Shown piece by piece: positions 1 through 18,075 of a stretch of DNA of 57,101 nt. The stretch covers positions 1 to 57,101 of the forward strand of contig CAZWDN010000003.1 of the NCBI GenBank assembly GCA_964633125.1. The letters are read 5' to 3'. The notes under the pieces were generated by a model. The model had not been told where the DNA came from. It did not search any database and worked only from the letters and a program-made list of their open reading frames with translations. The stretch is from an uncultured Pirellula sp. Its GTDB lineage: Bacteria; Planctomycetota; Planctomycetia; Pirellulales; PNKZ01. Position numbers and translations under genes: made by a program. Every line of letters begins with the position of its first letter. Within the stretch, counting starts at the first letter, position 1.

Positions 1-207
1 AAGAACTTCATGCCGCAATTGAAGCGGCTGAAAGACGCCGGCGTGGAGGTGTATATCGGCGGCGGCGAGGGGGGCGCGGCCATGGAGAAGTACGGCAGCA
101 GCGACTGGATCACCCATTGCTTCACGGCCGGCGGCACGGTGCTCAACGCGCTGGGAAGCGCCCCGGTGCCGTACTTGCAAGCGCTCTACATGGCGGCGAA
201 GAAGTAG
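1..207 (+). CDS. pgk: Phosphoglycerate kinase, C-terminal fragment (divergent; 5' end outside window)
   Basis: Frame is open from base 1. YIGGGEGGAA...ITHCFTAGGTVLNALG...VPYLQAL parallels the PGK C-terminal pattern GGGD..A...SHISTGGGA.LE.L.G..LP...AL. Confidence 0.6.
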   Translation, partial: KNFMPQLKRLKDAGVEVYIGGGEGGAAMEKYGSSDWITHCFTAGGTVLNALGSAPVPYLQALYMAAKK

Positions 208-287
208 CGGCCGACGATTGAAGGCAATTGCACGATTGGCGAGCGGCGGGGTTGATCCCCACCGCTCGCTAAGAAATCTGTGATGCC

Positions 288-599
288 CTACACCGTAAGG
301 CGGCCGCAGAGTTCGACGAGTTCGTCGAGGCGCCGCTTGATCTCGTCTTTCGCGCAAGCCGTCATACAGCCGTATTCCACGTACGCGGCGGCGGCGGAAA
401 GCTGCGGATAGCCGTAACTGCCGCCGGCCCCTTTCCATTGATGGGCCACGCGCCGCAATTCACTCCAATTTTCTTGCTCGAACGCCGCGGCCATCGCTCC
501 CAGGCGCTCGGGAACTTCGGACAAGAAGAGTTCGACCAACTCGACCATTTCCGGGTCGGCTGAGAGCGTGGAACCGATCGTAGCGGTTGCGTCGATCAT
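288..599 (-). CDS. Hpt (histidine phosphotransfer) domain protein
   Basis: LVELFLSEVPERL...LRRVAHQWKGAGGSYGYPQLS matches the Hpt H-x-x-KG motif. Start taken at ATG 599. Confidence 0.85.
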   Translation of the reverse strand: MIDATATIGSTLSADPEMVELVELFLSEVPERLGAMAAAFEQENWSELRRVAHQWKGAGGSYGYPQLSAAAAYVEYGCMTACAKDEIKRRLDELVELCGRLTV

Positions 600-832
600 A
601 GAATGTCCTTGATGAGCGTACCCAATACCTCGAAATGAACATGCTGATGTGCAAGGGTAGCTCACTACCCGTCGTTGGCGTAGTTTTTTTGCGGACTGAC
701 TCCTCGGAAATCCGCATCCCTAGACGTTTTACGTGCGGTAAACGTCAGATTCGTTTGCGTATCGAAAGCTGCGCCATAGCGTTGTGAGTAGCCCGAATTC
801 ACTTTAACGCTTCACGAACCCAGGCCTGTCTC

Positions 833-1303
833 ATGTCCGCATCAGGCGTTAACCGCAAGATTCTCCATATCGACGACGATCCGCAACTGACGCGCGTCGT
901 CGGGCATATGTTGCAGCGCAAGGGCTATGAAGTCGTGGCGCTCAATACGCCGGAAGCGGCGCTGGGCGAGATCATCCAGCACGGTTACCGGGTGATCTTA
1001 CTCGACATCGATATGCCGCGCATCGACGGCATCGAGTTGCTACGTCGGGTCAAAGAGTACGACGGCGCAATTCAAGTAATCATGCTCACGGGGTTGGTCA
1101 CCCTCTCGCACGCCATGGCGGCCTTTCGTTGCGGCGCCGAGGCCTGCTTCTTCAAGCCGGTGAACGACCTCTCCCCCCTGACGGCGGCCATCGACGCCTC
1201 GTTTCACAAAATCGAACATTGGTGGAAGGCGCTGCACGATCTGACGATGCAACGCCGCCACGCCGAGGCCTGCGCACACGGGGCTTGCGCCGTAAACGCC
1301 TAG
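833..1303 (+). CDS. Single-domain response regulator (receiver)
   Basis: ILHIDDD, LLDIDMP (phospho-Asp), MLTG and FKP motifs are all present. No DNA-binding output domain. Confidence 0.9.
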   Translation: MSASGVNRKILHIDDDPQLTRVVGHMLQRKGYEVVALNTPEAALGEIIQHGYRVILLDIDMPRIDGIELLRRVKEYDGAIQVIMLTGLVTLSHAMAAFRCGAEACFFKPVNDLSPLTAAIDASFHKIEHWWKALHDLTMQRRHAEACAHGACAVNA

Positions 1304-1709
1304 CGATTCCGATCGGCGCGGGCCGCGGCCGAGAAGTGCCTACGAAATCGCCGGCAAACTTGCGCGGTTGTATCGCCCGGGTAATTGAGGCTCCGTTTTT
1401 CGATGCGCGAAGTCGATTACTTTCTCCTAGTCGTCGGGCCGTGCGGATGCGGCGCATGTGAGCGATGATGTTTCTCGCGACATTCTCAAGCGTCGATGCA
1501 CCATCGACTTACGCATTGCCGGCAGCGCGCCGCCGCAAGACCCGATCTTCTGGCGGACACGGAACATTCGGCAGATCGCGAACTCTAAAAGCAAAGCCAA
1601 GCCGGCTTTGAAATCGCGCCGATAGATTGGCTTAGCTGCAGCCGAGAATTTCATCCAACCATCGGCTTGAGTTAGTGTTCGTTTCCCAATAGGAACAGGA
1701 GTCCTCCCC

Positions 1710-2093
1710 ATGAAGTCGTATTTGTTCTCTTTGGTCGCCGTCGCCACTTTCGTCTGTGGTTCGAGCGCCCAAGCCGGTTTGCTTGATCGCATGATGGGCG
1801 GCAATTGCTGCGCCCCCACGTGCTGTGAAGCGACCTGCGCCGCCGCCGAACCGACCTGCGCTTGTGCCGCTCCCGCTTGCGAACCGTCGTGCGCCGCCGA
1901 ACCCTCGTGCGGTTGCGCTCCGGCTTGCGACAACGGCTGCGGCAAGTGCTGCCGTCCGACGCCGGTCCGCGATTTCCTCGCGAACCTGCACTGCAAGATC
2001 CACAGCCTCTGCCATCGCAACAAGTGCTGCGATAGCGGTTGCTGCGAAGCGACCTGCGCCGCTGCCGAACCGGCTTGCGGTTGCGCTCACTAG
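1710..2093 (+). CDS. Secreted Cys-rich protein (127 aa, 25 Cys)
   Basis: AGGAG SD upstream, signal peptide ending SAQA, CCEATCAAAEP present twice, and its own terminator downstream. Confidence 0.8.
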   Translation: MKSYLFSLVAVATFVCGSSAQAGLLDRMMGGNCCAPTCCEATCAAAEPTCACAAPACEPSCAAEPSCGCAPACDNGCGKCCRPTPVRDFLANLHCKIHSLCHRNKCCDSGCCEATCAAAEPACGCAH

Positions 2094-2208
2094 TTCGAGT
2101 TTGAGTCCGAGTTTGATCTGCGTCTGAATCAGTTTCTCTAACGACCGAACCTTGCCCCGCGGAAGAGCTGCAGCACCCGCCCGCAACCATTCGGCGTAGA
2201 AAATACTG

Positions 2209-2254
2209 AGCGGCCCGTTCGAGACCTCCATCGAACGGGCCGCTTTTCTTTTTT
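2209..2254 (+). terminator. Intrinsic terminator
   Basis: Perfect 14-bp stem agcggcccgttcga/tcgaacgggccgct with an 8-nt loop, followed by tttcttttt. Confidence 0.85.
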
Positions 2255-2458
2255 GACCTCCCGCCAGGCCTTGCCGCGAAGCCGGCAAAAAAATTGCTTC
2301 GCCGCTGTTTCGTTTCGACCGATTCGCGGCGTCCGGAATCTCGAGCCGAGATCGCTTGACGCAACGCACGACAAGCGGCCATTCTAGAAGCGTCGCCGGA
2401 TCGTCGCCGGGCGGGGTTGCCGCCGCGCGATGTTCCGCCGTTTCAGGAGGCTCCCGCG

Positions 2459-4225
2459 ATGTCGGTCGTACGTCGTTACTTCGAAGTCTTCTGTTTGTCG
2501 ATGGTGCTCGCGGGAACGGGCGAAGCGATCGCCTATTCCGCGGAGCCGAGCGACGCGGCCTTTCGCGCGAGCTTGGCGGCCGGCGAGTTTTCGACGGCGC
2601 TCGCCGTCGCCGAAAAGCTTCCGGCAGCCGAACGCGACGCGGCTTTGCGCGATTTGGCGGCCGCGCAGAATCAGGTCGGCGCCGGCGGCGCGTCACTGGC
2701 CACCGTCGCCGCGATTCGCGACGATCGCCTGCGCCAAGACGTACTCGGACAAATGTTCGGCCAGACGTCCGGCACCGGCGGCGGCTTCGCCGGGGATGCG
2801 AACGGGGCGAATCACGGCAACGCGCTCGGAGGAGGCGTGCAGCCCGACTTCGATTCCTTGATCGAACTCATGGAGTCGACCATCGCGCCGGAAACTTGGC
2901 GCACCGCCGGCGGCACGCAAGGCGAGGTGAAATCACATGCCGGCGGCGTATTTGTCGACGCACAAGGCGCGATGCGGCCGATTGTGAACGGCGTCGAACT
3001 CGCCGGGCTGGCGGCGCTACGACGCGACGCGGCCCGCGGCGCGGAGTCCTCGAACGTCCGTCGGCCGTCGCAACTCCGCAAAGTTTCCCTGACGCGGCTG
3101 GAACGCGAGCTACAAATTCGTGCGGCGCGGGGATTGCCGATCGAGGAAGAACTGCAAGCGCTCGCCGGGCTGCAGAAAATCCAATACGTTTTCGTCTACC
3201 CGCAGTCGGGCGACGTGGTGCTCGCCGGCCCCGCGGGCGATTGGTATCTCGGCCGCGAGAACCGCCGCTTGTCCGTGGAAAATGATCGCCCCGTCGTGCT
3301 GCTCGACGATTTGATTACGCTGCTGCGCCGCGAGTTCGCCGCCGGCGGCGAATTCGGCTGCTCGATCGACCCGACCGCCGAGGGTATCCGGCGGCTGACG
3401 GCGTTCGTGACGGAGTCGAACAAGAAGCCGCTCGCGCCCGGCGGCCGCGGCAAATGGACCGACGAACTCGGCAAGCGGCTCGGCACGCAAAACGTCTCGA
3501 TCACGCGCATTGATCCGACTTCGCACGCGGCGCAGGTGCTCGTCGAAGCGGACTACCGCATGAAGCTCCTCGGCATCGGCAAGGAAGAGAGCATCGTGCA
3601 GGTGCCGAGCTATTTGCAGATTGTGGCCGACTCGAAGCCGAAGCAGCCGCCGGCCTTGGACCTGGTGCGCTGGTGGTTCACGATGAATTACGACGCGCTG
3701 TTGACCTCGGCCGAACACGACGTCTACGAGCTGCGAGGTACCGGCGTAAAGCTCTTGGGCGAAAACGAATTCCTCGCGGCCCGAGGAGAGCGCGTCGGCA
3801 CAGGCCAAGCGAACACCGCGAACCAGCTCTTCGCCGCCAACTTCACGACGCACTTCGCCGCGCTGGCCCGGAAGTATCCGATCTACGCGGAGCTGCAAAA
3901 CATCTTCGATTTGGCGCTCGTGGCGGCCGTACTGAAGCACGACGGCGTCTGCGATCGGATCCAATGGCGACGCACCGGGTTGATGAGCCCGGCGGTCTAC
4001 CAAGCCGAGCAATCACCCGCGCCGCGGACCGTGGAAACGGTCGCGGCGAGCCGGGAGTTGTCGCGAACGCTGATCCTCGCCACGGCCAGCGGCGGCGTGA
4101 CCGTCGACGTCGCTTCGATCGCACGGCCGGAAGCCATGCAGATCGACGACCGCGGGCAACTCACGAAAGTGCGACAAAGCCAACGCCCGACGAACGTGCC
4201 CGCACGCGGCTGGTGGTGGGACTAA
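2459..4225 (+). CDS. DUF1598 domain secreted protein (planctomycete-type)
   Basis: AGGAGG SD then ATG 2459 and a signal peptide. Motifs LDDLITLLR, FGCSIDP, EADYRMK, RWWF and YAELQNIFDLALVAA; ends WWD. Confidence 0.7.
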   Translation: MSVVRRYFEVFCLSMVLAGTGEAIAYSAEPSDAAFRASLAAGEFSTALAVAEKLPAAERDAALRDLAAAQNQVGAGGASLATVAAIRDDRLRQDVLGQMFGQTSGTGGGFAGDANGANHGNALGGGVQPDFDSLIELMESTIAPETWRTAGGTQGEVKSHAGGVFVDAQGAMRPIVNGVELAGLAALRRDAARGAESSNVRRPSQLRKVSLTRLERELQIRAARGLPIEEELQALAGLQKIQYVFVYPQSGDVVLAGPAGDWYLGRENRRLSVENDRPVVLLDDLITLLRREFAAGGEFGCSIDPTAEGIRRLTAFVTESNKKPLAPGGRGKWTDELGKRLGTQNVSITRIDPTSHAAQVLVEADYRMKLLGIGKEESIVQVPSYLQIVADSKPKQPPALDLVRWWFTMNYDALLTSAEHDVYELRGTGVKLLGENEFLAARGERVGTGQANTANQLFAANFTTHFAALARKYPIYAELQNIFDLALVAAVLKHDGVCDRIQWRRTGLMSPAVYQAEQSPAPRTVETVAASRELSRTLILATASGGVTVDVASIARPEAMQIDDRGQLTKVRQSQRPTNVPARGWWWD

Positions 4226-4258
4226 AGCCGGGCGCGTCCTTGTCGAACAGGGCCGACC

Positions 4259-5212
4259 TTAGGTGAAGGCGGCCCGTATCTCGGCGAGGAACTTCGGACA
4301 GACTTCGCGCGGGTCTTCATCCTCTTCGTATTCCAATACGATGTAGCCGCGGTAGCCGGCCTCGCGCAGAATCTTCGCCAAACGCGGCATGTCGACCGGC
4401 TCTTTCTTAGCCGTCTTTCGATCGCCGCGTTGCATCACCACCTTGACTTGCGCGTTGATCGCATACGGAGCGATTTGCTCCAACTCGGCGTAGGGATCGT
4501 CGGAATGAAAGTTCCCCGAGTCGAAGTTGATGCCGAGCCAGGGACTTTTTACGTCCTTCACCAGCTTGAGCAAGCCTTGCGGCTCGGCGGTGAGGCCGCC
4601 GTGGTTCTCCAAGGCGAGAAACACGCCGTGCTTGCCGGCGTAGTCACAGCATTCTTCAATGGCCGCGACCGCCAATGCGTGAGCCTGGGCTTCCGTTTGC
4701 CCCTTGTGAACGCTGCCGGAGAAGATGCGTATCACCGGCGCGCCGAGAATTTCGGCGTAGTCGATCCAATTCTTCGTGTAAGCGATTTGCTTGTCACGGT
4801 CCGGACCTTTGTCGTAGGTGAATTCGTTGCCGACGGCGGTGCCCGTCACGTCGAGGCCGAGCTTGAAGCACAGGGCCTTGAGCGAACGCAGATACACGGG
4901 CGTCGGATTTTCCGGAAAATAGTACGACGTCAGCTCGGTGCCGTCGCAGCCGAACTTGGCGCAGTCGGCGACGAAGTCTTCGATGGTCAGCGTCGCTTGC
5001 GGAGCGCCTGCGGGCTTCTTGCCGCGCGAGCTAGGCAAGAAGTTGCGATAACTGTACGCCGCCAAGCTAAATTTAAACTTCGCTTGGCCGTTGCGCGCGA
5101 CGGGTTCGACGGCGTGCGCGGCCCGCGGGGTATCAAACATTCCGGCCAGCGAAAGCCCGGCGGCTGCGGCAGCGGCCGAGGTGAGAAACCCGCGTCGTTC
5201 GATCGAGGCCAT
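4259..5212 (-). CDS. Sugar phosphate isomerase/epimerase (xylose-isomerase-like TIM barrel) with Tat signal
   Basis: RRGFL Tat motif; LALENHGG, NFDSGNF and IVLEYE metal-binding motifs. Confidence 0.85.
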   Translation of the reverse strand: MASIERRGFLTSAAAAAAGLSLAGMFDTPRAAHAVEPVARNGQAKFKFSLAAYSYRNFLPSSRGKKPAGAPQATLTIEDFVADCAKFGCDGTELTSYYFPENPTPVYLRSLKALCFKLGLDVTGTAVGNEFTYDKGPDRDKQIAYTKNWIDYAEILGAPVIRIFSGSVHKGQTEAQAHALAVAAIEECCDYAGKHGVFLALENHGGLTAEPQGLLKLVKDVKSPWLGINFDSGNFHSDDPYAELEQIAPYAINAQVKVVMQRGDRKTAKKEPVDMPRLAKILREAGYRGYIVLEYEEDEDPREVCPKFLAEIRAAFT

Positions 5213-5317
5213 GGCTGCTGCTCCGAGAGTCTACAAGTCGGTGAATGCGCGCATCTGCGACGCCGGGCATTATCGCTCGATTCGCGGAGCCGCTCAAGCG
5301 TCGAAAACGGGATCGGC

Positions 5318-6283
5318 TTAGTGCGCGGCGGCTGCGGAAGCGTCAGCGGTTCGCCGACTTAGAATCGCTTGCCATTGCTCGGCCGAAACGAACGACAGGC
5401 CGCAGCAGAACATCGCGACGCAAAACGGCACGAGGCCCGTCAGCACGGCCGTGCCGATCCAGACCGGGATACTCCAAGCGACGAGCAGCGGCCGCGCGGC
5501 ACGGTTCCAAATCAGAACGGCGAACGCCAGATAAAAGAGAATCAGCGACGCTGTCCAAATGTTGATTACATAAGGAAACTGGTACAGCCACCGCAAGTCG
5601 ATGAGGCACGACTCTGGTCGGGCGATAAGCCACCAGACGGCGGTGCCGTTCCACCACACCGCGTTGTATTGCAACGTAGCGCAGAACATCAAGAAGTAAA
5701 TCAGCGACGTGTGGACCTGGATGAGCCGGGTGCTGACCGTCGCCGCATACGCCGGGCGGGCGACGAGCAACGAAGGGTTCGCCGCGCGACGGCGCCAGGC
5801 ATCAATCGAGAGACACGCGCCGCACGGCCCGAAGCAAAGGTAGAACAGCAGCAGCGCGACGACCGGCTCGCCGACGCTCGTGAGCATCGGCCCGCGATGG
5901 AAGTAGGCGAGAAACACGACCAGCGACAAAACCGACGTGATTCGCGTCCAAAGTCCGAGCGTGAAGGCTGCGAGAATCGCCAAGCCGGCGTAGTGCATGG
6001 CCTGCAGGCTGCCGGAATCGGGCGCAAAATCGAGATACGAGAATCGCGTCGACGTGGCCGACGGATAGAGCCGCTCCAGCATCGAAACGCTGACGATGCC
6101 GCTCGGTCCGAAATAGCGGAGCAGATCAAAGCTAAACGTGAGGATCATCCAAAACGCGACTGAGCCGGCGCCAATCCGGAGCATGGCCAAGGGAAGCGGC
6201 TGCGACGGGGTGAACCAGAACCGATTCCAACCGTCGCCAAAGTTGCGAGCCGTGGTGCCGAGGTACCGTGAAACAGCGCTCAT
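5318..6283 (-). CDS. HTTM-domain membrane protein (vitamin K-dependent carboxylase/SdpB-like)
   Basis: Multi-TM protein with LRI, LGLWTR, LSIDAW, RLIQVH..LIYF and WWNGTA motifs. Confidence 0.75.
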   Translation of the reverse strand: MSAVSRYLGTTARNFGDGWNRFWFTPSQPLPLAMLRIGAGSVAFWMILTFSFDLLRYFGPSGIVSVSMLERLYPSATSTRFSYLDFAPDSGSLQAMHYAGLAILAAFTLGLWTRITSVLSLVVFLAYFHRGPMLTSVGEPVVALLLFYLCFGPCGACLSIDAWRRRAANPSLLVARPAYAATVSTRLIQVHTSLIYFLMFCATLQYNAVWWNGTAVWWLIARPESCLIDLRWLYQFPYVINIWTASLILFYLAFAVLIWNRAARPLLVAWSIPVWIGTAVLTGLVPFCVAMFCCGLSFVSAEQWQAILSRRTADASAAAAH

Positions 6284-7044
6284 GGCGTCCCTCCGGCCGG
6301 AGCAGTTGCCCCGGGAACGGCGGGGGCGGCGACGCTCGGAGCCGCGGAGTTCGAGGCCTCGCCAACCCGCGTCACCACCACGGCCTTGTCTTTCGTCACG
6401 GAAGCCAGCACTTCGTAAACCGTCTGAAAGTTGCTCGGGTCATCCCGTTCGACCTTGAGCACGCCGGTTCGCTCCAGTTCCTCCGGCGTCATCATGTAAT
6501 TCGGAAGCAAGCGGCGGCGAAAGCGGAGCTTCACCGGCATTGTTTGGGCGAGTTCGATGCAGTTGTTTTCGACGATGAGTCGCCGAGCAATTCCCTCGGC
6601 CAGCACGCCGGCGGCGTCGTTCTGGTTTTCCCCCTCCATGCCCGTCACATGCATGAGCCGCTCCAACCGTCGAAATCGCTGGCCGTGCAGATCGTCGCGG
6701 TTCGGCAACACCACGAGTTTTGTCGATCCGTCGGGCTGTGGAATGTCGGCCTCGACGAAGAAATCCGTGTCGGTGAGCGGGTAGGTCGCTACCGGCGACG
6801 GGTCGTAGTAGGTGAAATGGAACATATAGGAAAGATCCATCCCCAAGAGCTGCAGATACGGCCGAAGCCCCGGCACCTTATTTCGCAGGTCCTGCTCTAA
6901 GCCGGAGGAGTCGGTTCGCGACTTGATGCCGATGAGCAAAAAGAAGAAGTGCAGAAAGATTAGGTAGGTAATCACACCTCGCACGCCGGACGACGGCATA
7001 CCGTCAGGCGTCGGGTCGGTTGCCGGGGGTTCGGCGGAAGGCAT
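6280..7044 (-). CDS. Hypothetical membrane-anchored protein, probable HTTM partner (SdpA/DUF5819-like)
   Basis: One N-terminal TM (YLIFLHFFFLLIGI). Its stop overlaps the HTTM start (ATGA). The family assignment comes mainly from context. Confidence 0.55.
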   Translation of the reverse strand: MPSAEPPATDPTPDGMPSSGVRGVITYLIFLHFFFLLIGIKSRTDSSGLEQDLRNKVPGLRPYLQLLGMDLSYMFHFTYYDPSPVATYPLTDTDFFVEADIPQPDGSTKLVVLPNRDDLHGQRFRRLERLMHVTGMEGENQNDAAGVLAEGIARRLIVENNCIELAQTMPVKLRFRRRLLPNYMMTPEELERTGVLKVERDDPSNFQTVYEVLASVTKDKAVVVTRVGEASNSAAPSVAAPAVPGATAPAGGTP

Positions 7045-7156
7045 GGAGAGCGCTACTCGCAATTGAGCGGTTCGAGGTCGTGACGGAACTATCTATCGTA
7101 ATCGCCGGCCGCGAACTGCCGAAGTTTTTCCGCCGCGGAAACAACGTGCAAAACAG

Positions 7157-7190
7157 AAAAAGCCGGGCCTCACGAGGAGACCCGGCTTTT
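7157..7190 (-). terminator. Intrinsic terminator
   Basis: Minus-strand RNA GCCGGGUCUC-CUCGU-GAGGCCCGGC-UUUUU, about 60 nt after the stop at 7253. Confidence 0.8.
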
Positions 7191-7252
7191 CGCGGGAATC
7201 AGGGGCGACCGGCGCTTCAGGGGTGCGCCGATCGCCGTCTTATCAGCAGGGA

Positions 7253-7720
7253 CTACTTAGCCGGAGCGGCAGCGGGAGCGGCCGGCTTCGGGGCCGGGGC
7301 AGCCGGAGCAGCCGGGGCGGCCGGAGCAGCGCCAGCGCAGCTCGGGGCAACCGGGGTGCAGCAAGCCGGTTCGCAGCAGGCCGGAGCACCGCAGCAAGCC
7401 TTTTCACCGCAGCAGCGTTCACGAAGACGAGCGAGCAGGCCCTTGCGGCCGCAGCACGGTTCGTTGCAGCAGGTCGGTTCCGGAGCGCCGCAGCAAGCCT
7501 TTTCGCCGCAGCAACGATCACGCAGACGGCTGAACAAGCCGCCACGGCAACCGCAATCCGAGCAATCCGAACCGCTGCAACCACCATCGCAACCACCGTC
7601 GCAACCGCTGCAACCATGGCAACCGTGACCGGCGACGGCCACATTCTTCTCACCGCCGACGAGGGCGATGCCGACGACCGCGAAGAAAATCGCGATACCA
7701 AAACAAAGAACACGATTCAT
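7253..7720 (-). CDS. Secreted Cys-rich protein with Pro/Ala tail (155 aa, 26 Cys)
   Basis: GGAGG SD before ATG 7720, hydrophobic N-terminus, GC/DGGC repeats, and a duplicated L..RLR.RCCGEKACCGAP unit. Confidence 0.8.
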   Translation of the reverse strand: MNRVLCFGIAIFFAVVGIALVGGEKNVAVAGHGCHGCSGCDGGCDGGCSGSDCSDCGCRGGLFSRLRDRCCGEKACCGAPEPTCCNEPCCGRKGLLARLRERCCGEKACCGAPACCEPACCTPVAPSCAGAAPAAPAAPAAPAPKPAAPAAAPAK

Positions 7721-7918
7721 TCTAAACTCCTCCAACAAAAAACTGGTACGTACCACGCAAATCAATTTGCCGTCTTCTTCCCGCATCCCGCTTTGCGACG
7801 GCAAAACATTCGGGAGCGTAAACGTCTAGCGTTGGTGCAATCGTTGCCGGCAACGAACCCTGATGTGAGCCTTTTCCGATTGCATATTCTGCACCTGAGT
7901 GCACAGGCTAGGATGGAT

Positions 7919-7946
7919 AAGTTAGCATTGAGGGTCGTGTTGTCAA
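7919..7946 (-). promoter_or_regulatory. Sigma70-type promoter
   Basis: Minus strand TTGACA-N16-TAACTT with an extended -10 TG (TGcTAACTT), pointing at the gene starting at 7720. Confidence 0.55.
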
Positions 7947-8056
7947 GAATCAAAAGGCCCGACTGGATGCAATGCGCTGAAAGCGTATTCTGGGGGCAAT
8001 AAGTGAAATTGTCCTACTAGCTTACCACGCCCCTCGTTCGGTGCGGCCCAATGCGC

Positions 8057-8095
8057 AAAAAAAAAGGCGATCCACGAGTACTCGTGGATCGCCTT
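8057..8095 (-). terminator. Intrinsic terminator of the lipoprotein gene
   Basis: Perfect 32-bp palindrome aaggcgatccacgagt|actcgtggatcgcctt ending in a 9-U tract on the minus strand. A second 9-bp hairpin lies at 8109-8133. Confidence 0.85.
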
Positions 8096-8143
8096 CTCGA
8101 ATGCGTCCTAAGCCCTTTAACAACAAGGGCTTATTATACAAAT

Positions 8144-8980
8144 CTACTTAAGCTGTGGAGCGCCGGGAAGCTCCGGCTGTTGTGCTTGAAGCGTGCCGTT
8201 TCCGCTCGTGGCAGTTCCCGAAGAAAACCCAGAAACCGGCTGGACGCTGCCACCCTGCCCACCGGCAGGAATTCCCCCGGCATTTTGCACTGTCCCGCCC
8301 GGAAGCGTCGGTGTGCCGCTCGACATGGCGCCGGGCGTCGGATTCAGCGTCGGCGTCGAACCATTGGTTTGCTGCGTCAATCCGGCGGGGGTCGTTGCTG
8401 TTGTTGTTGCAGTCGTCGCCGTTCCTGCGGTCGCCGTGCCTGCCGGCTGACCGCCGTTCAGGCGACGTTGGTATTCCTGCTCCGCCAACTGCGTCTGCTT
8501 AACCATGTCTTCCGGGTTCTCGAAATCGAGTTGAAGAAAAGGCATATCCGGATACGGTTGCGTGGCGACGCCGCCGATGCGCCATTGCCCCTTGTCGAGC
8601 CGCATGGCCCAAACGAAATCGTTCACTTCCGGCTTGCCGTCCGGGCCGACATCCGTCCAGCGGCTTTCGACGTAAGCGAGTTGTCCTTGCTCGGCGACTT
8701 CCGTGGCCCCCACTTCGAACTTTGCGGTGGGGCTTCCCGGCGGAGCGACCATCAGATCCATGGCCCGCGTCTTCTCGCGAGCTAAGTCGGTGAGCATCGC
8801 TTCGGCTCCCTTATCGTTGCCGGTGCGAACCGACTCCAGGAACTGAAACACCACCGTGTGCGGCGGAACTTGCGGCGCCGCCGGAGCAGCCGGGGCTCCC
8901 GCATTCTCTTCCGACTTACTGCATCCCCAAGCAACGCAAAGCGCTGCCGCCAACATTCCCGTCGTTGCGATCCTTCGCAT
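8144..8980 (-). CDS. Hypothetical lipoprotein with Thr/Gly/Pro-rich tail
   Basis: Signal peptide with lipobox VAWGC, a globular alpha/beta core, and a low-complexity C-terminus. Confidence 0.7.
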   Translation of the reverse strand: MRRIATTGMLAAALCVAWGCSKSEENAGAPAAPAAPQVPPHTVVFQFLESVRTGNDKGAEAMLTDLAREKTRAMDLMVAPPGSPTAKFEVGATEVAEQGQLAYVESRWTDVGPDGKPEVNDFVWAMRLDKGQWRIGGVATQPYPDMPFLQLDFENPEDMVKQTQLAEQEYQRRLNGGQPAGTATAGTATTATTTATTPAGLTQQTNGSTPTLNPTPGAMSSGTPTLPGGTVQNAGGIPAGGQGGSVQPVSGFSSGTATSGNGTLQAQQPELPGAPQLK

Positions 8981-9255
8981 GGTCCCTCTCCTACGATGGC
9001 TTGGCCCCGAGTTCGTCTCGACGCCGCTTCATCCGTGAATCGTATATGACGCGTCGGGCCTTCGAGCCCGCGCCCAGTTCCGTCTAGCCGTCTACCGCAT
9101 ATTCCCGGCTCTTCCCACATCCCGAGCGACAACCGGGCGAGCGACTTCATGTCGCCGTCGCGCGGAAAATAGGAAGATCGTGTCGGAAGTCTGTCAGGAA
9201 CGAAAAATCGGGTCAAGACAAGTTCTGGCCGGCCCGGTTTTCTCGACGAACCGGC

Positions 9256-10725
9256 TTACCCTGCTCCGACGCCCCGATCGAAGGCGTCTTGTTCGCGGCG
9301 GTAGAGTGCTAGCTGCGCTTCAAATTCGGCCGCTGAGATGCGCCAGACCGGGGCGTCGTCCGTGTGGGCGTTACAGTGGGCGGACATCACGCGGTAGAGA
9401 AACTTAAACAGGTGCCGCGGCACCCGCAGGCCGCGAATTCCATCGATCAGCCGTCGGTCGCCGAGCGATTCGTCGAACATATCCTTCAGCGTCGGCTTCT
9501 TCCCGGCGAGCGCGCAGGCCCGCATGCGGGCATTGGCCACGTCGTACAAGGCCTCGCCGGTCCATTCGAGCGTCGGCACAACGTTTTGCTTATCGAGCCG
9601 GGAGCGTTGATAGAAGTCGCGGCTTTCCCGCTCCACGAAGTACGAAAGCTCGATCGGCAGCAGCAGCTTGAACCCTAAGCCCGGGTGCTTGAGGAATTTG
9701 TTGTCGAGCATCGGCCACAGCAGGGCCTTCATCTTATCGGGGGAACCGTTGACCAAGTGCGGCTCGTCCAGCCGATCGACCAGCACGACGATCGCCGGAT
9801 AACCGAGTGTTTGCAGCACGCCTTGGAACTTATGGAGCATTTCAAAGCGATCGTCGGTCCGCTGCTTGTTCGGCAACGGCTGTTGCAGCAGTTCGTCGTT
9901 CGTCAGCCGCATCAGCACTTTGCGTAACAGCCCTGAATTTCGTTCGAGCACGCGCAGGTTCGACGAAATACTCCGGGCCGTCCACCAGCGGCGCGTAAAC
10001 CGCCAAGCCCACGGCAACCATCCGGCCGCCACGACGACGTACGGCCAAACGCTTTCGAGCCAATCCCATTTGCCGAGCGACCCGATGAGCCCGCAAACCA
10101 CGGCCGTCACCAGGACGCCGATCAGCATCGGCTGCCAACTCTTCCAGGTGCGGAACTTGAGCGCCCGGCGGAGCCGATGCCAACGCACGCGAAACGGCTC
10201 GGCCGTCGATTGATCGTAGCAAGCGGCCAGCAGCAACAGATCGCGGGCCTCGTGCCGCGAGAGTTTGGCGACGTCCGGCTTCGCGTCGTCGCCCGCGGGC
10301 TGCACGACGCCGTCGACCAGTTTCGTCACGCCGAGCGCGAGGATCGAATCCATATGGTCCCAGAGCATCCATTGCTCCAACACCTTCTCCGGCGGGCGAT
10401 TGCCCCAGAGCGTATCGCGAAACCGATCGAGAAACGGATTGAAGTCGTCATACTGAATGACGAACGCCCGCTTCAACGGGCTGCGACGGTTGTGCTCGGC
10501 CAAATGCCGGGCGATCTGCAAACGCAGGGCGGTTTTGCCGGAACCCTTCTCGCCAAACACCACCGAAGTCGCCGGCTCCTGCGGGTCGCCGTAGATCTTG
10601 TCCCAACTGGGGTGATACGTACCGGCAATGCAGTGTTCCTTGAACACCGGATCTGTCTGGGCGTCTTCCTCGGCGAACGGATTCTTGCCCACGCCGTGAT
10701 GTTCGAGGAACTGCTGCAGCTTCAT
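9256..10725 (-). CDS. P-loop NTPase with two inserted TM helices (KAP-like architecture)
   Basis: Walker A GEKGSGKT, Walker B AIVVLVDRLDE, with two hydrophobic helices between them. Start taken at ATG 10725. Confidence 0.7.
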   Translation of the reverse strand: MKLQQFLEHHGVGKNPFAEEDAQTDPVFKEHCIAGTYHPSWDKIYGDPQEPATSVVFGEKGSGKTALRLQIARHLAEHNRRSPLKRAFVIQYDDFNPFLDRFRDTLWGNRPPEKVLEQWMLWDHMDSILALGVTKLVDGVVQPAGDDAKPDVAKLSRHEARDLLLLAACYDQSTAEPFRVRWHRLRRALKFRTWKSWQPMLIGVLVTAVVCGLIGSLGKWDWLESVWPYVVVAAGWLPWAWRFTRRWWTARSISSNLRVLERNSGLLRKVLMRLTNDELLQQPLPNKQRTDDRFEMLHKFQGVLQTLGYPAIVVLVDRLDEPHLVNGSPDKMKALLWPMLDNKFLKHPGLGFKLLLPIELSYFVERESRDFYQRSRLDKQNVVPTLEWTGEALYDVANARMRACALAGKKPTLKDMFDESLGDRRLIDGIRGLRVPRHLFKFLYRVMSAHCNAHTDDAPVWRISAAEFEAQLALYRREQDAFDRGVGAG

Positions 10726-10816
10726 GGGTGATCCGTCACGATGGCAGGCACGAAAGTGTGCCACTGCCGGGCAGGCCGGCAGCGGCACACATATTCAGGC
10801 GGCAAACTCCGAGTCG

Positions 10817-11383
10817 CTACTTCGCCTTGAGCCCTTCGACCATCTTCATGAAGCCCGGCTCGGCGGCGGCGATGGTCTTCTCCGGACCATACAGCTTGAC
10901 GAAGTACTGGCCCCCGTCTTTGGTCGAAATAATGGCGCCGAGCATCCGATAGTTGGGACGTTCGGTTCCGGGCCCCGGCACGAACGGGCCCGGTTTATCA
11001 AGGTAAACTCCCTTGATGTTGACGACATGCACCGGCTGGTCCGCGACCTTGAGTTGCTTGACGTCGGCTTTCACTTCGCCGTCGTCCGATTTGAACTGGC
11101 CTTTCCAGCGATCGATGTTGGCTTCGACGCCGCCGCCTGCCCCCATCACCGTCACGCGGCCGGCGAATTCGTCCCCTTCGGCCTTCGGCGTTTCAAATTC
11201 ATATTCGACGATCCGCGACCGGGGCTCTTTCGCTTCCCAATCGGCCGGGGCGACCAGCACGAACTTCTCGCCGATGTTAAACGGCGTCCCTTCCGCGGCC
11301 ACGGCTTGCGACGCGGCGCCGAGCACGACCAGCGCGCCCGCCGCTACCAAACGAAACGAAGTCATCGACGTCAGGCTCTTCAT
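10817..11383 (-). CDS. Hypothetical secreted protein
   Basis: Signal peptide ending AVAA. Contains GGGVEANIDRWKGQF and YFVKLYGP segments; codon usage matches neighbouring genes. Confidence 0.7.
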   Translation of the reverse strand: MKSLTSMTSFRLVAAGALVVLGAASQAVAAEGTPFNIGEKFVLVAPADWEAKEPRSRIVEYEFETPKAEGDEFAGRVTVMGAGGGVEANIDRWKGQFKSDDGEVKADVKQLKVADQPVHVVNIKGVYLDKPGPFVPGPGTERPNYRMLGAIISTKDGGQYFVKLYGPEKTIAAAEPGFMKMVEGLKAK

Positions 11384-11416
11384 CTTCAGCTCCCCTGAGG
11401 AAAGGCTATTCGTTAC

Positions 11417-12145
11417 TTAAAGCGTTTGCATTTCGGTCGAGCGGCGGCTCGTCTCCTCGTCGGCCGGATTCGGGCCGCGCGAGATCACAAAGTACGTCAC
11501 CCAAGCCAAAGCCGCGACCAACAGCACCAGCACGACGACCGTCGCGAGGTACGTGCCGTTAGAACGGCGTTGGTAGTATATCGCCGCCGCCGGCGGGGCG
11601 GAACCGACCGGCGCATGGCCGCCGGGCGTAGCCGTTGGTGCGGGCATCGGCGGCTGCGGGGCTGCGGCGACGGGCGATCCGGCCGACAGGTGCGGCCAGA
11701 CTGAAGCAGCCGGCCGCCACTCCGGCCAGTCCTGTCGCCAAACCATGGACGCCCCGACAATCCGTCCCTCGTGCAGCCATTGAAACATGGTCGCTCCGTC
11801 GGCCGGACCGAACGGCTGCCCGCCGTCGGCTGCGGAAACGTACCAGACCGCGGTCGGGTTCTCCGCCAGCGGGTCGACCGCCGGAGCCGATTGGATCGCG
11901 ACGATCCGCCCGACGGGGGCCGCAACCTCGGTGTAAGCCTGCGCTGCGGAAGGTTGCGCGGAGCCGGCGGGATTCGCGCTCGTCGCCGTTGGCGATTCTT
12001 CCGCCTCCGGCCGGTCGGGCAGCGTACTAGTTAGCGGAATCTGCACCGACGCGCCGCACTTCGGGCAGAGGCCGCGCTTCCCGGCCTGATGCTCTTTGAC
12101 GTTGATCCGCTTCGTGCAGGCCGGGCAAATAAATCGAATACCCAT
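11417..12145 (-). CDS. Zinc-ribbon + GYF_2 (DUF4339) domain membrane protein
   Basis: N-terminal CPAC...CPKC, the segment WYV...GQPFGP...WL.EGRI....VWRQDW.EW, and a C-terminal TM. Confidence 0.8.
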   Translation of the reverse strand: MGIRFICPACTKRINVKEHQAGKRGLCPKCGASVQIPLTSTLPDRPEAEESPTATSANPAGSAQPSAAQAYTEVAAPVGRIVAIQSAPAVDPLAENPTAVWYVSAADGGQPFGPADGATMFQWLHEGRIVGASMVWRQDWPEWRPAASVWPHLSAGSPVAAAPQPPMPAPTATPGGHAPVGSAPPAAAIYYQRRSNGTYLATVVVLVLLVAALAWVTYFVISRGPNPADEETSRRSTEMQTL

Positions 12146-12240
12146 CCGTCGGCGTTCTCGCGTGAGTGGTGCTGAACTGAAGATTATAGCCAAGGGCCGC
12201 AGGTCGGGTCGAACGGCATCAGGCCCGACATGGAAACTCC

Positions 12241-12415
12241 ACTTACGTCGATTGGTCAGACCGCTCACTGCGTACATAACTCGCGTTATGTACGCACCCC
12301 TTGTGGGTTTTGGGGTTGTGCGTACATAAGCCCGAGTTATGTACGCACGGCCGGATCGGCCCGTCGACGTAAGTCTGCAAAGTTGCAGGCACACTCCGTG
12401 TGCCTGCAACTTTGC
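12241..12415. repeat. Cluster of nested perfect inverted repeats (REP/BIME-like)
   Basis: 11-bp IR at 12241-12251/12364-12374 encloses 12-bp stems at 12269-12296 and 12318-12348. An 18-bp stem with a 3-nt loop lies at 12377-12415. Confidence 0.85.
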
Positions 12416-12530
12416 CTGCCATCCCGCAACCTACCGCCTTCCTCGGCAAACCTCCATGTCATTTTTGGCCGGCTGCTATACTGTCGGCGACTCGCCGGAT
12501 CTCGCTAGGTCGCACGCGGAGGAAGCTCCC

Positions 12531-13778
12531 TTGAAATCGTTCCATTGCCGCCGCTCATTCCGTCTTGCGTTGCTCGCAGCGCTGTCCGTTTGCAACGGTG
12601 CACCGCTGATTGCCGCCGAGCCGTCGACTTCGCTCACATCGACAGAGTTCTTCACGCGCCGCATCTTGCCGATCGCGCAGGCGCAGCGAGCTTCCAGTTG
12701 CACCGAGTGTCATTTTTCCGGCGTGGAACTCAAACAATACGTGCTGGCCGACGAAGCCGCGACGTTCGCCGCGCTGCGTCGCGCAGGCTTGATCGACGTC
12801 GCCCGGCCGGAACATTCGAAGCTGTTGCAATTCATTGCAAGGAAGCCGGAGCGCGAAGACCCGACGCTGGCCCGCGTGCGCACAGAAGAGCTCGCGGCCT
12901 TTCAAGGCTGGATCGCGGCGGCCGTTCGCAATCCCGAACTATTGGCAAGTTCACCGTCGCCCCAATCGATCGGCACCGCGTTGCCGCCCGAGGTGATTCG
13001 CCACGCGCGTCGCGACCACGTGCTGAACGCCTTCATCGAGAACGTCTGGGTCGAGATGGAACGCTGCGTCAATTGCCACTCGCCCGAGCGCAATCAGCGT
13101 TTCCGCAAAGAGCACGGCGAGCAAGTTTCTTGGATCACGCCCCGCGATCCCGCGGCCACGCTCCAATTCCTCGCCGATCAAGGACTGATCGACGTGGATG
13201 AACCGGAGAAGAGCTTGTTGCTGCTCAAGCCGCTCGGCGTCGTCGAACATGCGGGCCATGTGAAATTCGTCATCGGCAGCCGGACCGACAGACAGTTTCG
13301 CAGCTTTCTGAACGACTATGCCGCAGCCGTCCAAGGAAAATACCGCACGGCGAGCGAACTACCCAAGCCGCGCGAGCAAATCACGATCGCCACGGGCCAG
13401 CAGCTTCGGGTGACCGATCTACCGCTTGATTACGGCGGCCGCCTGATGCGCGTGCTACTGCACCGCCGGGAAGGAAACGGCTGGAGCAAGCGCCCGATCG
13501 CCACGGGCGACAGCGGCATCAACCCGAAGAACGGCCAATGGCAGAACCCGGTTTGCGAATTGGTCGACCGCCAAGACGCGACGCCGGAGCGACTGACGAA
13601 CCCGCGATTGCTTCCCGGCGAGCGGTACCTCGCCAAGCTCTACATCGACCGCGACAACCGCGCGGCCAAGGATTCGGCCTTTGAGTTCACGGAAAAGGAC
13701 CTCTTCGCCGAAATCGAATTCGCCGGCGAATGGAAGCCGGGCTACCTGACGCCGAAAATCATCTCGGCGAAGGACTAG
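12531..13778 (+). CDS. Secreted di-heme c-type cytochrome (planctomycete cytochrome c-like)
   Basis: GGAGG SD before TTG 12531, a signal peptide, and CTECH and CVNCH heme motifs. Confidence 0.7.
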   Translation: MKSFHCRRSFRLALLAALSVCNGAPLIAAEPSTSLTSTEFFTRRILPIAQAQRASSCTECHFSGVELKQYVLADEAATFAALRRAGLIDVARPEHSKLLQFIARKPEREDPTLARVRTEELAAFQGWIAAAVRNPELLASSPSPQSIGTALPPEVIRHARRDHVLNAFIENVWVEMERCVNCHSPERNQRFRKEHGEQVSWITPRDPAATLQFLADQGLIDVDEPEKSLLLLKPLGVVEHAGHVKFVIGSRTDRQFRSFLNDYAAAVQGKYRTASELPKPREQITIATGQQLRVTDLPLDYGGRLMRVLLHRREGNGWSKRPIATGDSGINPKNGQWQNPVCELVDRQDATPERLTNPRLLPGERYLAKLYIDRDNRAAKDSAFEFTEKDLFAEIEFAGEWKPGYLTPKIISAKD

Positions 13779-13814
13779 GCGAGCGTCGAGCCGTAAGGCC
13801 GACGTGTGCCTGAG

Positions 13815-14042
13815 CTATTTGCCCAGCACTTCTTCCTGCGGCGGCTCTTCTTGTTCCAAGAGCTCTTGGGCTTTGCGGAGCATCCACACCGCGTCGTCCG
13901 ATTCGAGGCACGGGCTGTAGGCGATGAAGCCGTCGTCGGGCACGGCGCCTTTGTAAATCGTGCAAACATGGACAAACTTCACCGGGCGGCGGCCGAGTTC
14001 TTCGAGAATCTGTTCCGTGGTGGCCAGTTCTAGTTCGATCAT
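13815..14042 (-). CDS. Small hypothetical protein (75 aa)
   Basis: AAGGA SD before ATG 14042. Plausible acidic small protein filling the gap between genes. Confidence 0.5.
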   Translation of the reverse strand: MIELELATTEQILEELGRRPVKFVHVCTIYKGAVPDDGFIAYSPCLESDDAVWMLRKAQELLEQEEPPQEEVLGK

Positions 14043-14262
14043 GGGCTCGGTCCTTACACTCGCGCGGTGAATGTCGCAGGTGCTCCGGCGTTCCGACGAC
14101 ACTTCGTCGCACGCCGTCCCTGGTAAACTCTACCACCAACCATAGAGCGCGAATGTGCACAGAGTTTATCGCCGTCGGAAAAACGCCGAGGATCATTCTG
14201 TAACGATTATGACGGCGGTTTTCCCACCCGATGGAGCCGCGGGTAAGCGACGCCGCGCGCCG

Positions 14263-15000
14263 TTACGGCACATTGTGAAACACGAACTGCATGAGGTTCT
14301 TCGTGCCGATCGTGCCGGCGGTCGAGAGCACTTCGCCGGCTTGAAAGCCCGCCGCCTGACCGTAATGCTCGGCCAGCGCGCGAACGCGCGAGAACACATG
14401 CGATTTGGCCGGCGGAAACTGCGTGGCGTAGCAACGAATACTGTCGAGCTTTTGCTCCAACGTTTCGGAGATATCCACGACGACGTGCCCCGCCCCCGGC
14501 GGCAACTCCAGCGAGCTGAAGTTGAGCGTGTAGTACAAGAGCGACGGCACCGTATGCACGGGCAGGCCTTCGAAATGCTCGTCCCATTTCGTGAGCCGCG
14601 AATAGAACACGGCCCCCTCGGTAATCAGCATCGCTTGATGATGGTCGGGCGACGCCAGCGGCGTCTTCTCGCCGAAGCCGATGATCAGCCGCGGCCGGAA
14701 CTTGCGAAACTGCTTCGCCAGCGCCGTACGGGCCTCGAACGAATCGAACAAGCGCCGATTGGGCAAATCGAGTTGCACGCGCGCGTGAACGCCGAGCGTT
14801 GCGGCGGCCGCGCGAGCTTCGGCGGCCCGCACTTCGGGGCCGGGCGAAAGCGGCGTCGGTTCGCCGTCGGTCAGATCGATAATGCCGACCTTGAACCCCT
14901 GCTTTACGAGCGAGGCCAACGTCCCGCCGCAAGCAATCTCCACATCATCGGGATGCGCCCCGACGGCAATCACATCAAGCTTCAAATCATCTTCGGCCAT
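14263..15000 (-). CDS. bshB1: PIG-L family deacetylase, BshB1-like
   Basis: [26 protein letters not shown] and SPDH motifs. Confidence 0.75.
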
Positions 15001-15015
15001 GGAACACATTCGCGG

Positions 15016-15523
15016 ATCAGAGAAGGAGATAGGGAGATCGGAGGAGATATTGGAGACGGGAGATCGAGCTAATATTTCGGTGCGTGAGCTTCCAAGCCGA
15101 CGCGCCGAAAGTCGGCCTTGTCCTTGAAAAAAGTGACGAGCAAACCTGTCTTGAGTCCCGCCGCCTTGAGATACGAACGGAGTTGCGAGTAGTGAGCCTT
15201 CGTCAACTTCTCCACGGCTTTCAATTCCACAATCAGACTGTCGCGAACCACTAGGTCGAGTCGGTGCCTACCGACGAGTTCGCTGTTGTAGCAGATATCA
15301 ATTTCGTATTCGGTTTTGAATGGAATCTCGGAATTCTTCAAATCAACAGCTAATGCCCGATGGCAAATATTTTCCAAAAAGCCGGGACCAAGCGCCTTAT
15401 GGACGCGAATGATGGACGCGATCACCTCCTGCGAAAGCTTGTCGACGGAATAGTCTTTGAGAGGTTCTCGCCCGTCCCGTCTTACCCGATCTCCAGAATC
15501 TCCGGCCATCCCCTTCTCTGAAA
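15016..15523 (-). mobile_element. GxxExxY cassette bounded by imperfect inverted purine/pyrimidine arms
   Basis: tcagagaagg at 15017 and its reverse complement at 15512-15521, with ggagat-periodic arms. The interior is visibly more AT-rich than the flanks. Confidence 0.55.
15069..15509 (-). CDS. GxxExxY protein (PD-(D/E)XK-like)
   Basis: [14 protein letters not shown] (motif Tyr replaced by Cys), RLDLVV...IVELKAV, and QLRSYLK...GLLVTF. Confidence 0.85.
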
Positions 15524-15526
15524 AAG

Positions 15527-16789: not shown

Positions 16790-17001
16790 GGATTGGTCCT
16801 ACGAGTGTGAGTACCGCCGCACGTGTCGGCAGTTGGAAATGGCACGGTGAAAAGGCATGGAATAGCGCATTGTTCCTGCCGGGCTCGGGAAGTGTCAAGC
16901 GCGGCCGGCTTCACCGCTCGGCGCCGTGCATTGAATCACGCCGTCGGGCGCGGTAGAACGACGAACTTCTCCGAACTGAAACCTCGCACCCTCGCCGCCC
17001 G

Positions 17002-17991: not shown

Positions 17992-18075
17992 ACCGCCGGG
18001 CCGTCGAGTTAGAATGCGAGCCTTCTTCGTAGCCGCGCAGGCACGTTGATTCCCGCCTTCCTCGAGACCCCGCCG

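Follow-up and report, generated by a model that had tools for sequence, protein, structure and literature searches.

The window analysed here is a 57,101-nucleotide (nt) stretch of an uncultured Pirellula sp. of the order Pirellulales (GenBank assembly GCA_964633125.1, contig CAZWDN010000003.1, positions 1 to 57,101, forward strand). It carries three co-oriented genes that encode, in the order of transcription, a small secreted cysteine-rich (Cys-rich) protein, a protein with a single transmembrane helix that we call the partner, and a polytopic membrane protein of the HTTM type. An earlier note, made from the sequence alone, had read this trio as a planctomycete analogue of the Bacillus subtilis SdpABC system. 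All of the elements that it described, including the 26-Cys secreted peptide, the single-helix protein and the ATGA overlap that couples the last two genes, are indeed present (Table 1), and the whole window holds just two credible Cys-rich open reading frames (ORFs), one HTTM gene and one partner gene. The link between the Cys-rich gene and the pair is widespread and real, and nothing points to a Bacillus-style toxin.

Table 1. Features of the Cys-rich/partner/HTTM locus and its surroundings (positions are those of the window)
Feature	Position	Strand	Description
Cys-rich protein gene	7253-7720	-	155 amino acids (aa), 26 Cys; ATG after GGAGGAG
Partner gene	6280-7044	-	254 aa, single hydrophobic helix, Ala/Pro tail
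HTTM gene	5318-6283	-	321 aa, polytopic membrane protein
Stop/start overlap ATGA	6280-6283	-	Partner TGA and HTTM ATG share letters
Terminator-like hairpin	7157-7191	-	GC-rich stem of 15-17 bp plus T-run; between Cys-rich gene and pair
Promoter of Cys-rich gene	7919-7946	-	TTGACA, 16 nt, TAACTT
5' leader of Cys-rich mRNA	7721-7911	-	About 190 nt, ends in strong Shine-Dalgarno sequence (SD) GGAGGA
Candidate H-type pseudoknot	7765-7824	-	X (8 bp), GCCGTC, X', loop, GACGGC
p278 lipoprotein-like gene	8144-8980	-	278 aa; signal plus Cys lipobox; long T/G/P/Q-rich tail
Hairpin terminator beyond p278	8055-8097	-	
TAT-signal xylose-isomerase-like TIM-barrel protein	4259-5212	-	106 nt downstream of HTTM gene
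Second Cys-rich ORF	1710-2093	+	127 aa, 25 Cys, signal peptide

The Cys-rich gene is more than a chance reading frame, because a family of such genes occupies the same position in most genome loci (57/72) and because a transcript of about 700 nt was recovered from five metatranscriptomes. Pfam and NCBIfam scans of the Cys-rich, partner and HTTM proteins of the window gave no direct match. The N terminus of the Cys-rich protein (MNR, 19 hydrophobic residues and then GGEKNVAVA before GHG) looks like a Sec signal peptide, with A-x-A for cleavage, or possibly an anchor. Behind it lie a GHGCHGC cap, CC-x-CC repeats spaced by GLFxRLR motifs and an Ala/Pro tail. The mature protein consists of 18% G, 17% C, 15% A, 9% R, 9% P and 6% H, with hydrophobic residues making up 6%; no hydrophobic segment or toxin domain was seen in it, and no Pfam or NCBIfam family, SdpC included, matched.

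Conservation within the family is concentrated at the N terminus: mean pairwise identity is 73% over residues 1-24 and about 40% over the remainder. Identity in the signal peptide thus exceeds that of the HTTM enzyme itself (about 45%), which is unusual for a signal peptide. Family members contain 10-28% Cys (median 17%) and up to 17.5% His, with CxC, CxxC and CC patterns, and their bodies range from the keratin-associated-protein (KAP)-like CC-x-P-x-CC repeats with GLFxRLR seen in the window to CHGR repeats and RRHH runs. One homologue matches the high-sulfur keratin model PF13885, and ...VSFRR forms the C terminus in about half of the family. The extreme members, at L163 4363-4860, L170 4387-4854 and L171 2327-2794, contain runs of five Cys (CCCCC) and six His (HHHHHH), GHGCCCCCGGGCCCGGDCCCGHHHHHHRHHCCCC, and these runs suggest metal chelation. 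The family is inherited vertically across Pirellulales. A search of the literature on Cys-rich proteins or metallothioneins of planctomycetes found nothing relevant.

Metagenomes of wastewater, sludge and bioreactors contain the organism. In the five metatranscriptomes, the Cys-rich mRNA was assembled as a contig (depth 5-14) extending from 7191-7197 to 7860-7899; X35 was exceptional in giving two overlapping contigs that reached only 7734. The contigs start just downstream of the conserved promoter. Analysis of k-mer conservation located CTTGACAA at about -243 from the ATG in 39 of 56 loci, followed by a conserved (CA)TGCTAACTT. At their other end the contigs stop at the hairpin that precedes the partner gene, and an equivalent hairpin was found in 41 of 57 loci versus 26 of 285 random segments; the caveat of the earlier note, that a terminator separates the peptide gene from the pair, was real. 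We conclude that the Cys-rich mRNA is monocistronic and abundant and ends at this terminator. Up to position 20,000 of the window, the one other gene assembled at such depth was the second Cys-rich gene (transcript 1648-2204). No conserved promoter was found between the terminator and the partner gene, where only terminator k-mers were enriched; we infer that low-level read-through of the terminator is the simplest way to express the pair.

The leader of the Cys-rich mRNA contains a potential pseudoknot. An 8-bp helix, X:X', would enclose a near-invariant GCCGTC, which in turn would pair with a GACGGC located 11-17 nt past X'. In an alignment of 46 sequences, 80% of the cells were paired, versus at most 51% with slid partners, and the covariation was 0.251 versus 0.141±0.014 in shuffles (0/500). 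All eight X:X' pairs vary on both sides, and a U:A pair of the second helix is replaced by C:G. When 947 kb were searched with a covariance model, the motif appeared solely upstream of the Cys-rich gene family, including two loci outside the training set. Comparison of the leaders of Cys-rich genes with Rfam gave no match, the two sub-threshold hits both falling on terminator hairpins. With its covarying pseudoknot, the leader is a candidate new cis-regulatory RNA. A second leader hairpin lies near the 5' end and has a conserved loop, ...ACAGGG; there is also a conserved GGTACCTG near the SD.

Since direct Pfam and NCBIfam scans were silent, the identity of the 321-aa protein was established through its relatives and its fold. 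More than 436 relatives were found, nearly all in Pirellulales or Planctomycetia metagenome-assembled genomes, and a few of them are named "HTTM domain-containing protein" or carry PF05090. Among 27 aligned relatives, six matched PF05090 (best E 1e-6) and 13 matched TIGR04033, the SdpB family model (best E 7e-11), which did not match the window protein itself. In tblastn comparisons, the window protein matched annotated HTTM proteins of Bacillus and Ralstonia replicons with E values of 1e-10 to 7e-14. Its AlphaFold 2 model has a predicted local distance difference test score (pLDDT) of 89. The top 15 Foldseek matches of this model in the PDB were all human GGCX, the vitamin-K carboxylase (probability 1.0; template-modelling score, TM(query), 0.60-0.64; about 300 columns), and the matches after these had E>0.4 and were noise. 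A search of PDB sequences with the HTTM alignment profile gave nothing even at E<=10. The HTTM label is borne out by these results, and by its predicted structure the protein has the HTTM/GGCX membrane-domain fold. Of GGCX, the membrane domain alone is present.

When the family profile was aligned by hhalign with GGCX residues 50-324 (a sequence 100% identical to the PDB chains), the two were collinear over 255 columns, and the Lys common in the family fell on Lys218. The SxD and K...W..G motifs are common to GGCX and most HTTM family members. Lys218 is the catalytic base of GGCX (Lys189 in a modelled bacterial HTTM protein). Its equivalent in the window protein is Thr203, with no Lys or Arg nearby, and across 81 family members the column contains 55 K, 16 Q, 6 M and 4 T. 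Positions R36, R130, D161, R186, Q189 and H191, in contrast, are invariant. Because Thr203 replaces the Lys218 equivalent and the column is variable, vitamin-K-hydroquinone (GGCX-type quinol) chemistry is doubtful for the window protein; the residue is evidently dispensable for the family. Among loci L001-L080, Thr at this position is limited to the window and its three closest relatives. The Cys-rich proteins of the Thr-variant relatives, where the contig shows them, are His-poor and of the CC-x-P-x-CC type.

Relatives of the partner numbered 35 in a word-based search and 398 clusters in a profile search over 1.84 billion representatives. We fetched the loci of HTTM relatives from 80 species genomes; in 78 of them, the partner profile matched the ORF directly upstream of the HTTM gene, and in the two exceptions the HTTM gene lies at a contig edge with no room upstream. 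The partner and HTTM genes frequently overlap by 4 nt across genomes. Since contig edges account for the only exceptions, we conclude that partner and HTTM are an obligate pair. The partner family has an invariant His within the transmembrane helix and a strongly conserved juxtamembrane segment. The helix is N-terminal and precedes an alpha/beta part of ~190 aa; the secondary structure of the AlphaFold 2 model (moderate pLDDT of 70) places the helix at 19-43 and the alpha/beta domain at 95-226. Foldseek found no match for this model in the PDB (best E 0.5), and a likeness to the luminal domain of GGCX or to any solved fold is therefore unsupported, at the model's pLDDT of 70.

The earlier note had taken the partner to be SdpA-like and pointed to DUF5819. 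The position and architecture (a transmembrane helix followed by a soluble domain) agree with this view; family searches do not. Scans of 34 plus 60 partner relatives against Pfam and NCBIfam gave no match to DUF5819 (PF19136), SdpA, TIGR04034 or any other family at E<=1. Profile-profile comparison of the partner with DUF5819 gave an hhalign probability of 2% with four DUF5819 sequences and 8% with eight. With 138 partner sequences against the eight DUF5819 proteins, the probability was 8% (P 0.004), and the alignment always involved the same 71 columns, which correspond to the first ~70 residues: the transmembrane helix with the His, the juxtamembrane helix and the first hairpin with a "DG". 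Cross-searches between the partner and DUF5819 models gave E>0.09. With the comparison at no more than 8%, we regard the partner as an analogue of DUF5819 in position and architecture, and homology as unproven. Its family, uncharacterised and about 400 clusters in size, may take the place of DUF5819.

The genomic association of the Cys-rich gene with the pair, a check proposed in the earlier note, was positive from both sides. In 57 of the 72 genome loci with room upstream, the gene that immediately precedes the partner gene, in the same orientation, belongs to the Cys-rich family. For the reverse test, metagenomes were scanned with the signal peptide of the Cys-rich family as anchor. Of 32 contigs with room, 24 had the partner 550-830 nt downstream of the Cys-rich gene; the HTTM gene followed in 15 of 22. 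Adjacency thus amounts to about 75-80% in both directions (57/72 and 24/32), and it persists across genomes whose HTTM proteins are just 37-45% identical. The outer flanks vary: a xylose-isomerase-like gene lies downstream in 34 of 80 loci and an ATPase gene upstream in 20.

The tightest companion of the Cys-rich gene is p278. It is found upstream on the same strand in 49 of the 57 loci with a Cys-rich gene and in none of the 15 without one, and in metagenomes it lies near the Cys-rich gene in 32 of 39 contigs with room. It accompanies the Cys-rich gene also at loci that lack the HTTM pair. Its Pfam match to SnoaL_2 (SnoaL/NTF2-like) is weak (E=0.009). The linkage of the Cys-rich gene to the pair is not obligatory, and we read the neighbourhood as two modules that are mostly found together, p278 with the Cys-rich gene and the partner with HTTM.

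A Pfam scan of the flanking genes (2417-4225, 4259-5212, 8144-8980 and 9256-10788) detected DUF1598, a xylose-isomerase-like TIM barrel, the weak SnoaL match and weak, sub-threshold matches to P-loop ATPases (NACHT/AAA-type). The xylose-isomerase-like gene is on the same strand as the HTTM gene with no terminator-like site between them, and it may be co-transcribed with the pair. Three genes further upstream keep their synteny with the cluster in about 20 related loci: 9256-10788 (-), for a weakly P-loop-like protein of 510 aa; 10817-11383 (-), for a secreted protein of 188 aa; and 11417-12409 (-), for a 330-aa protein whose C-terminal segment is hydrophobic. In the related metagenome contig L083 (7204-8303), a gene for a DsbD-like thiol-disulfide transporter directly follows the HTTM gene. 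In another, L081 (4669-7517), a Cys-rich gene without the pair adjoins sulfate-assimilation genes (CysNC/CysD-like).

The second Cys-rich gene, which the earlier note had offered as a possible further substrate, finds no support as one. Its product has KAP-like CC repeats, and in two of four metatranscriptomes no contig within window positions 1-20000 is deeper than its transcript (1648-2204, +; up to 53). Outside the window, the gene is conserved in no genomes but the two closest, L001 and L005; it never adjoins an HTTM pair, and it was dropped as a further substrate. The population carries a variant of it with a 15-nt insertion after position 1858.

Arrangements of an HTTM gene with a partner are already known. 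A published AlphaFold 3 model of the DUF5819-HTTM pair of Melghirimyces has the transmembrane helix and domain of DUF5819 occupying the positions of a GGCX transmembrane helix and clamp, and MloH is a natural DUF5819-HTTM fusion (preprint 10.64898/2026.08.19.745780). In the DUF5819-HTTM loci that we compared, on plasmids and megaplasmids of Bacillus, Streptomyces and Kitasatospora, a gene for a small secreted or ice-binding-family protein is followed by DUF5819 and HTTM. The small secreted hypothetical protein regularly precedes the pair on Bacillus plasmids (L085, L086, L091 and L094), and the ice-binding-family protein does so in Streptomyces/Kitasatospora (L087, L090 and L093); these proteins are candidate substrates, seemingly not pointed out before. 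A DCC1/DUF393 thiol-disulfide oxidoreductase often follows HTTM, as a separate gene or a fusion, and in Bacillus an S8 peptidase gene sometimes lies further upstream. In Ralstonia, an unannotated 190-aa ORF with a single transmembrane helix and the DUF5819 motif overlaps the HTTM start, and a DCC-like ORF comes next. The window shares with these pairs of Bacillota, Actinomycetota and Pseudomonadota a protein of about 200 aa, consisting of a His-containing transmembrane helix and a soluble part, encoded directly before HTTM with frequent overlap, as well as a small secreted protein encoded just upstream. It differs from them in a partner that PF19136 does not recognise (hhalign 8%), in the lack of a fused or adjacent DCC1/DUF393 oxidoreductase, in the replacement of the conserved Lys by Thr, and in the poly-Cys/His low-complexity character of its secreted neighbour.

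In B. subtilis, SdpA and SdpB are needed for processing of secreted SdpC (PMC6818787). SdpABC/YitPOM resembles the window in combining an HTTM protein, there SdpB, with a small partner, there SdpA, and with a secreted product that starts with a signal peptide; in addition, the relatives of the window's HTTM protein score best against TIGR04033. Unlike in the window, the gene for the secreted protein, sdpC, comes last in the gene order. The window also differs from SdpABC in other ways: none of its proteins matches the SdpA or SdpC family, a hydrophobic toxin core is missing, the flanks scanned with Pfam include no SdpI/SdpR-type immunity genes, and its Cys-rich family is vertical across an order and very highly expressed. 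Hence the SdpABC analogy proposed in the earlier note stands for gene architecture; for family membership and toxin function it does not.

The resemblance to GGCX lies in the fold of the membrane domain (TM 0.60-0.64, probability 1.0) and its collinearity over 255 columns. A further likeness is that GGCX acts on secreted proteins, which it recognises via an N-terminal propeptide. The HTTM protein differs in having no luminal domain, which the partner may supply, and in having Thr for Lys218, and the putative Cys-rich substrate is Glu-poor. For the Cys-rich protein itself, parallels come from composition. The planctomycete envelope has long been reported to be rich in cystine and proline. Within the PVC superphylum, chlamydial OmcA and OmcB are Cys-rich envelope proteins (PMC2811131). 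Compared by character and not by sequence, the window family is likewise small, abundant, exported and very Cys-rich; unlike OmcA/OmcB and the planctomycete envelope, many of its members are His/Arg-rich and not Pro-rich. Metallothioneins and Hpn-type His/Cys-rich proteins store metal, and bacterial metallothioneins are cytosolic. With these the family shares, in composition only, low complexity, Cys patterns, poly-His runs and few hydrophobic residues; it differs from metallothioneins in being exported with a conserved signal peptide and in its Ala/Pro tail and C-terminal ...VSFRR.

By analogy with these systems, partner and HTTM most likely form a two-subunit GGCX-like membrane complex, and the AlphaFold 3 model of DUF5819-HTTM would provide the most economical reading of the pair. 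HTTM would supply the membrane domain, and the partner an extra transmembrane helix and an extracytoplasmic "clamp"-like domain, as proposed for DUF5819-HTTM. The Cys-rich protein would be exported by Sec and handled by the complex at the periplasmic membrane face, through modification, thiol/disulfide handling or processing, with its conserved N-terminal segment serving as a recognition or docking element; both the site of action and the docking role are inferred. Thiol/disulfide chemistry is the most plausible theme. Elsewhere, HTTM genes occur next to, or fused with, genes for DCC-type oxidoreductases, and in L083 the DsbD-like gene follows the HTTM gene. Low read-through of the terminator would yield much substrate and little enzyme. 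The Cys-rich product would best fit the role of an abundant envelope constituent that either binds metal or thiols in the manner of a metallothionein or is cross-linked by disulfides. We favour such a housekeeping envelope or metal-binding protein over a toxin because it has no hydrophobic core, no immunity-type neighbour among those scanned, vertical inheritance and very high expression. Of the two fates that the earlier note had allowed for a processed Cys-rich peptide, toxin or envelope protein, the first loses ground with the missing hydrophobic domain and immunity gene, and the second suits the data better.

That the HTTM complex handles the Cys-rich protein is, in our estimate, a reading with just under an even chance of being correct, and several observations weigh against it. 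The pair occurs without a Cys-rich gene in 15 of the 72 loci (the more divergent pairs), and about 25-30% of Cys-rich genes have no pair downstream, their neighbours being different in L081/L082, L084, L104, L163, L170 and others. A strong conserved terminator separates the Cys-rich gene from the pair, whose transcripts were not assembled in the metatranscriptomes, which is no proof of silence. The wider synteny is also partly conserved, and the adjacency may therefore be partly inherited. To these add the unproven homology of the partner, with its relatives silent in the DUF5819 scans, and the doubtful quinol chemistry of an HTTM family in which 26 of 81 members lack the Lys. In the main alternative, p278 and the Cys-rich protein would form an independent module, a periplasmic metallothionein-like metal buffer or a structural envelope protein under riboswitch-like control, the pair acting on another protein, a lipid or the quinone pool, and the adjacency being ancestral Pirellulales synteny. 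Such independence is a possibility to be taken seriously, somewhat less probable in our view. It accords with the Cys-rich gene having its own promoter, a strong conserved terminator and a monocistronic transcript, with the occurrence of either module alone (pairs in 15/72 loci; Cys-rich genes in L081, L084, L104, L163, L170 and others), and with the co-occurrence of the Cys-rich gene with p278 (49/57 versus 0/15) rather than with the pair. Other flanking genes are partly syntenic as well, and expression of the second Cys-rich gene is just as high with no HTTM gene in its vicinity. What independence would leave unexplained is the same-strand adjacency of about 75-80% in both directions, maintained despite HTTM identities of 37-45% and differing outer flanks, the recurrence of the same three-gene order in unrelated phyla, and the lack of a conserved promoter for the pair.

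An SdpABC-like role, with the Cys-rich precursor turned into a secreted disulfide-containing toxin or bacteriocin by HTTM and an SdpA-like partner, seems to us quite improbable. The best scores of the HTTM relatives are against the SdpB model (13/27, best E 7e-11), the three-gene architecture includes a small secreted protein, and processing could take place at the repeated GLFxRLR spacers that separate the Cys clusters. Leaky terminators after precursor genes are usual in peptide-maturation operons, which also counts for this role. It is opposed by the lack of any SdpA/DUF5819 or SdpC family match, of a hydrophobic C-terminal toxin domain (6% hydrophobic residues) and of an SdpI-like or immunity-like gene among the flanking proteins scanned with Pfam. 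The vertical, not patchy, inheritance across an order, the hypervariable low-complexity body with poly-Cys/poly-His members and the missing catalytic Lys of the window HTTM protein speak against it too. Finally, the Cys-rich ORF could be unreal, a chance ORF in GC-rich DNA or an antisense frame: gene callers seem to have missed it, a search of the protein collection having given no 100% match to it, and overlapping ORFs exist on both strands. We give this a negligible chance, the family being conserved together with its signal peptide, SD, promoter and terminator, and a promoter-to-terminator transcript being present in five metatranscriptomes; the 57/72 conservation and the transcripts refute it.

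In its fullest form, the reading in which the complex handles the Cys-rich protein would make the pair a GGCX-like two-subunit machine of Pirellulales that modifies or redox-manages a hypervariable poly-Cys/His protein, one of the most abundant exports of these bacteria, produced under a hitherto undescribed pseudoknot riboswitch-like leader. We regard this combination as speculative and, taken as a whole, unlikely. If true, bacterial HTTM enzymes would gain their first class of natural protein substrates other than the Sdp toxins, and there would be a possible molecular handle on the cystine-rich planctomycete envelope or on periplasmic metal buffering.

New here are an undescribed partner family, an undescribed candidate substrate class and a candidate regulatory RNA. 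The function of bacterial HTTM proteins is poorly known beyond SdpB and MloH, and the cluster offers a large, vertically inherited family with an obvious candidate substrate next door, natural HTTM variants without the catalytic lysine and an uncharacterised partner family. The ligand of the leader would reveal the purpose of the Cys-rich protein. In wastewater metatranscriptomes, no genes of the region are expressed more strongly than those for the Cys/His-rich proteins, which could be major envelope or metal-handling components of planctomycetes.

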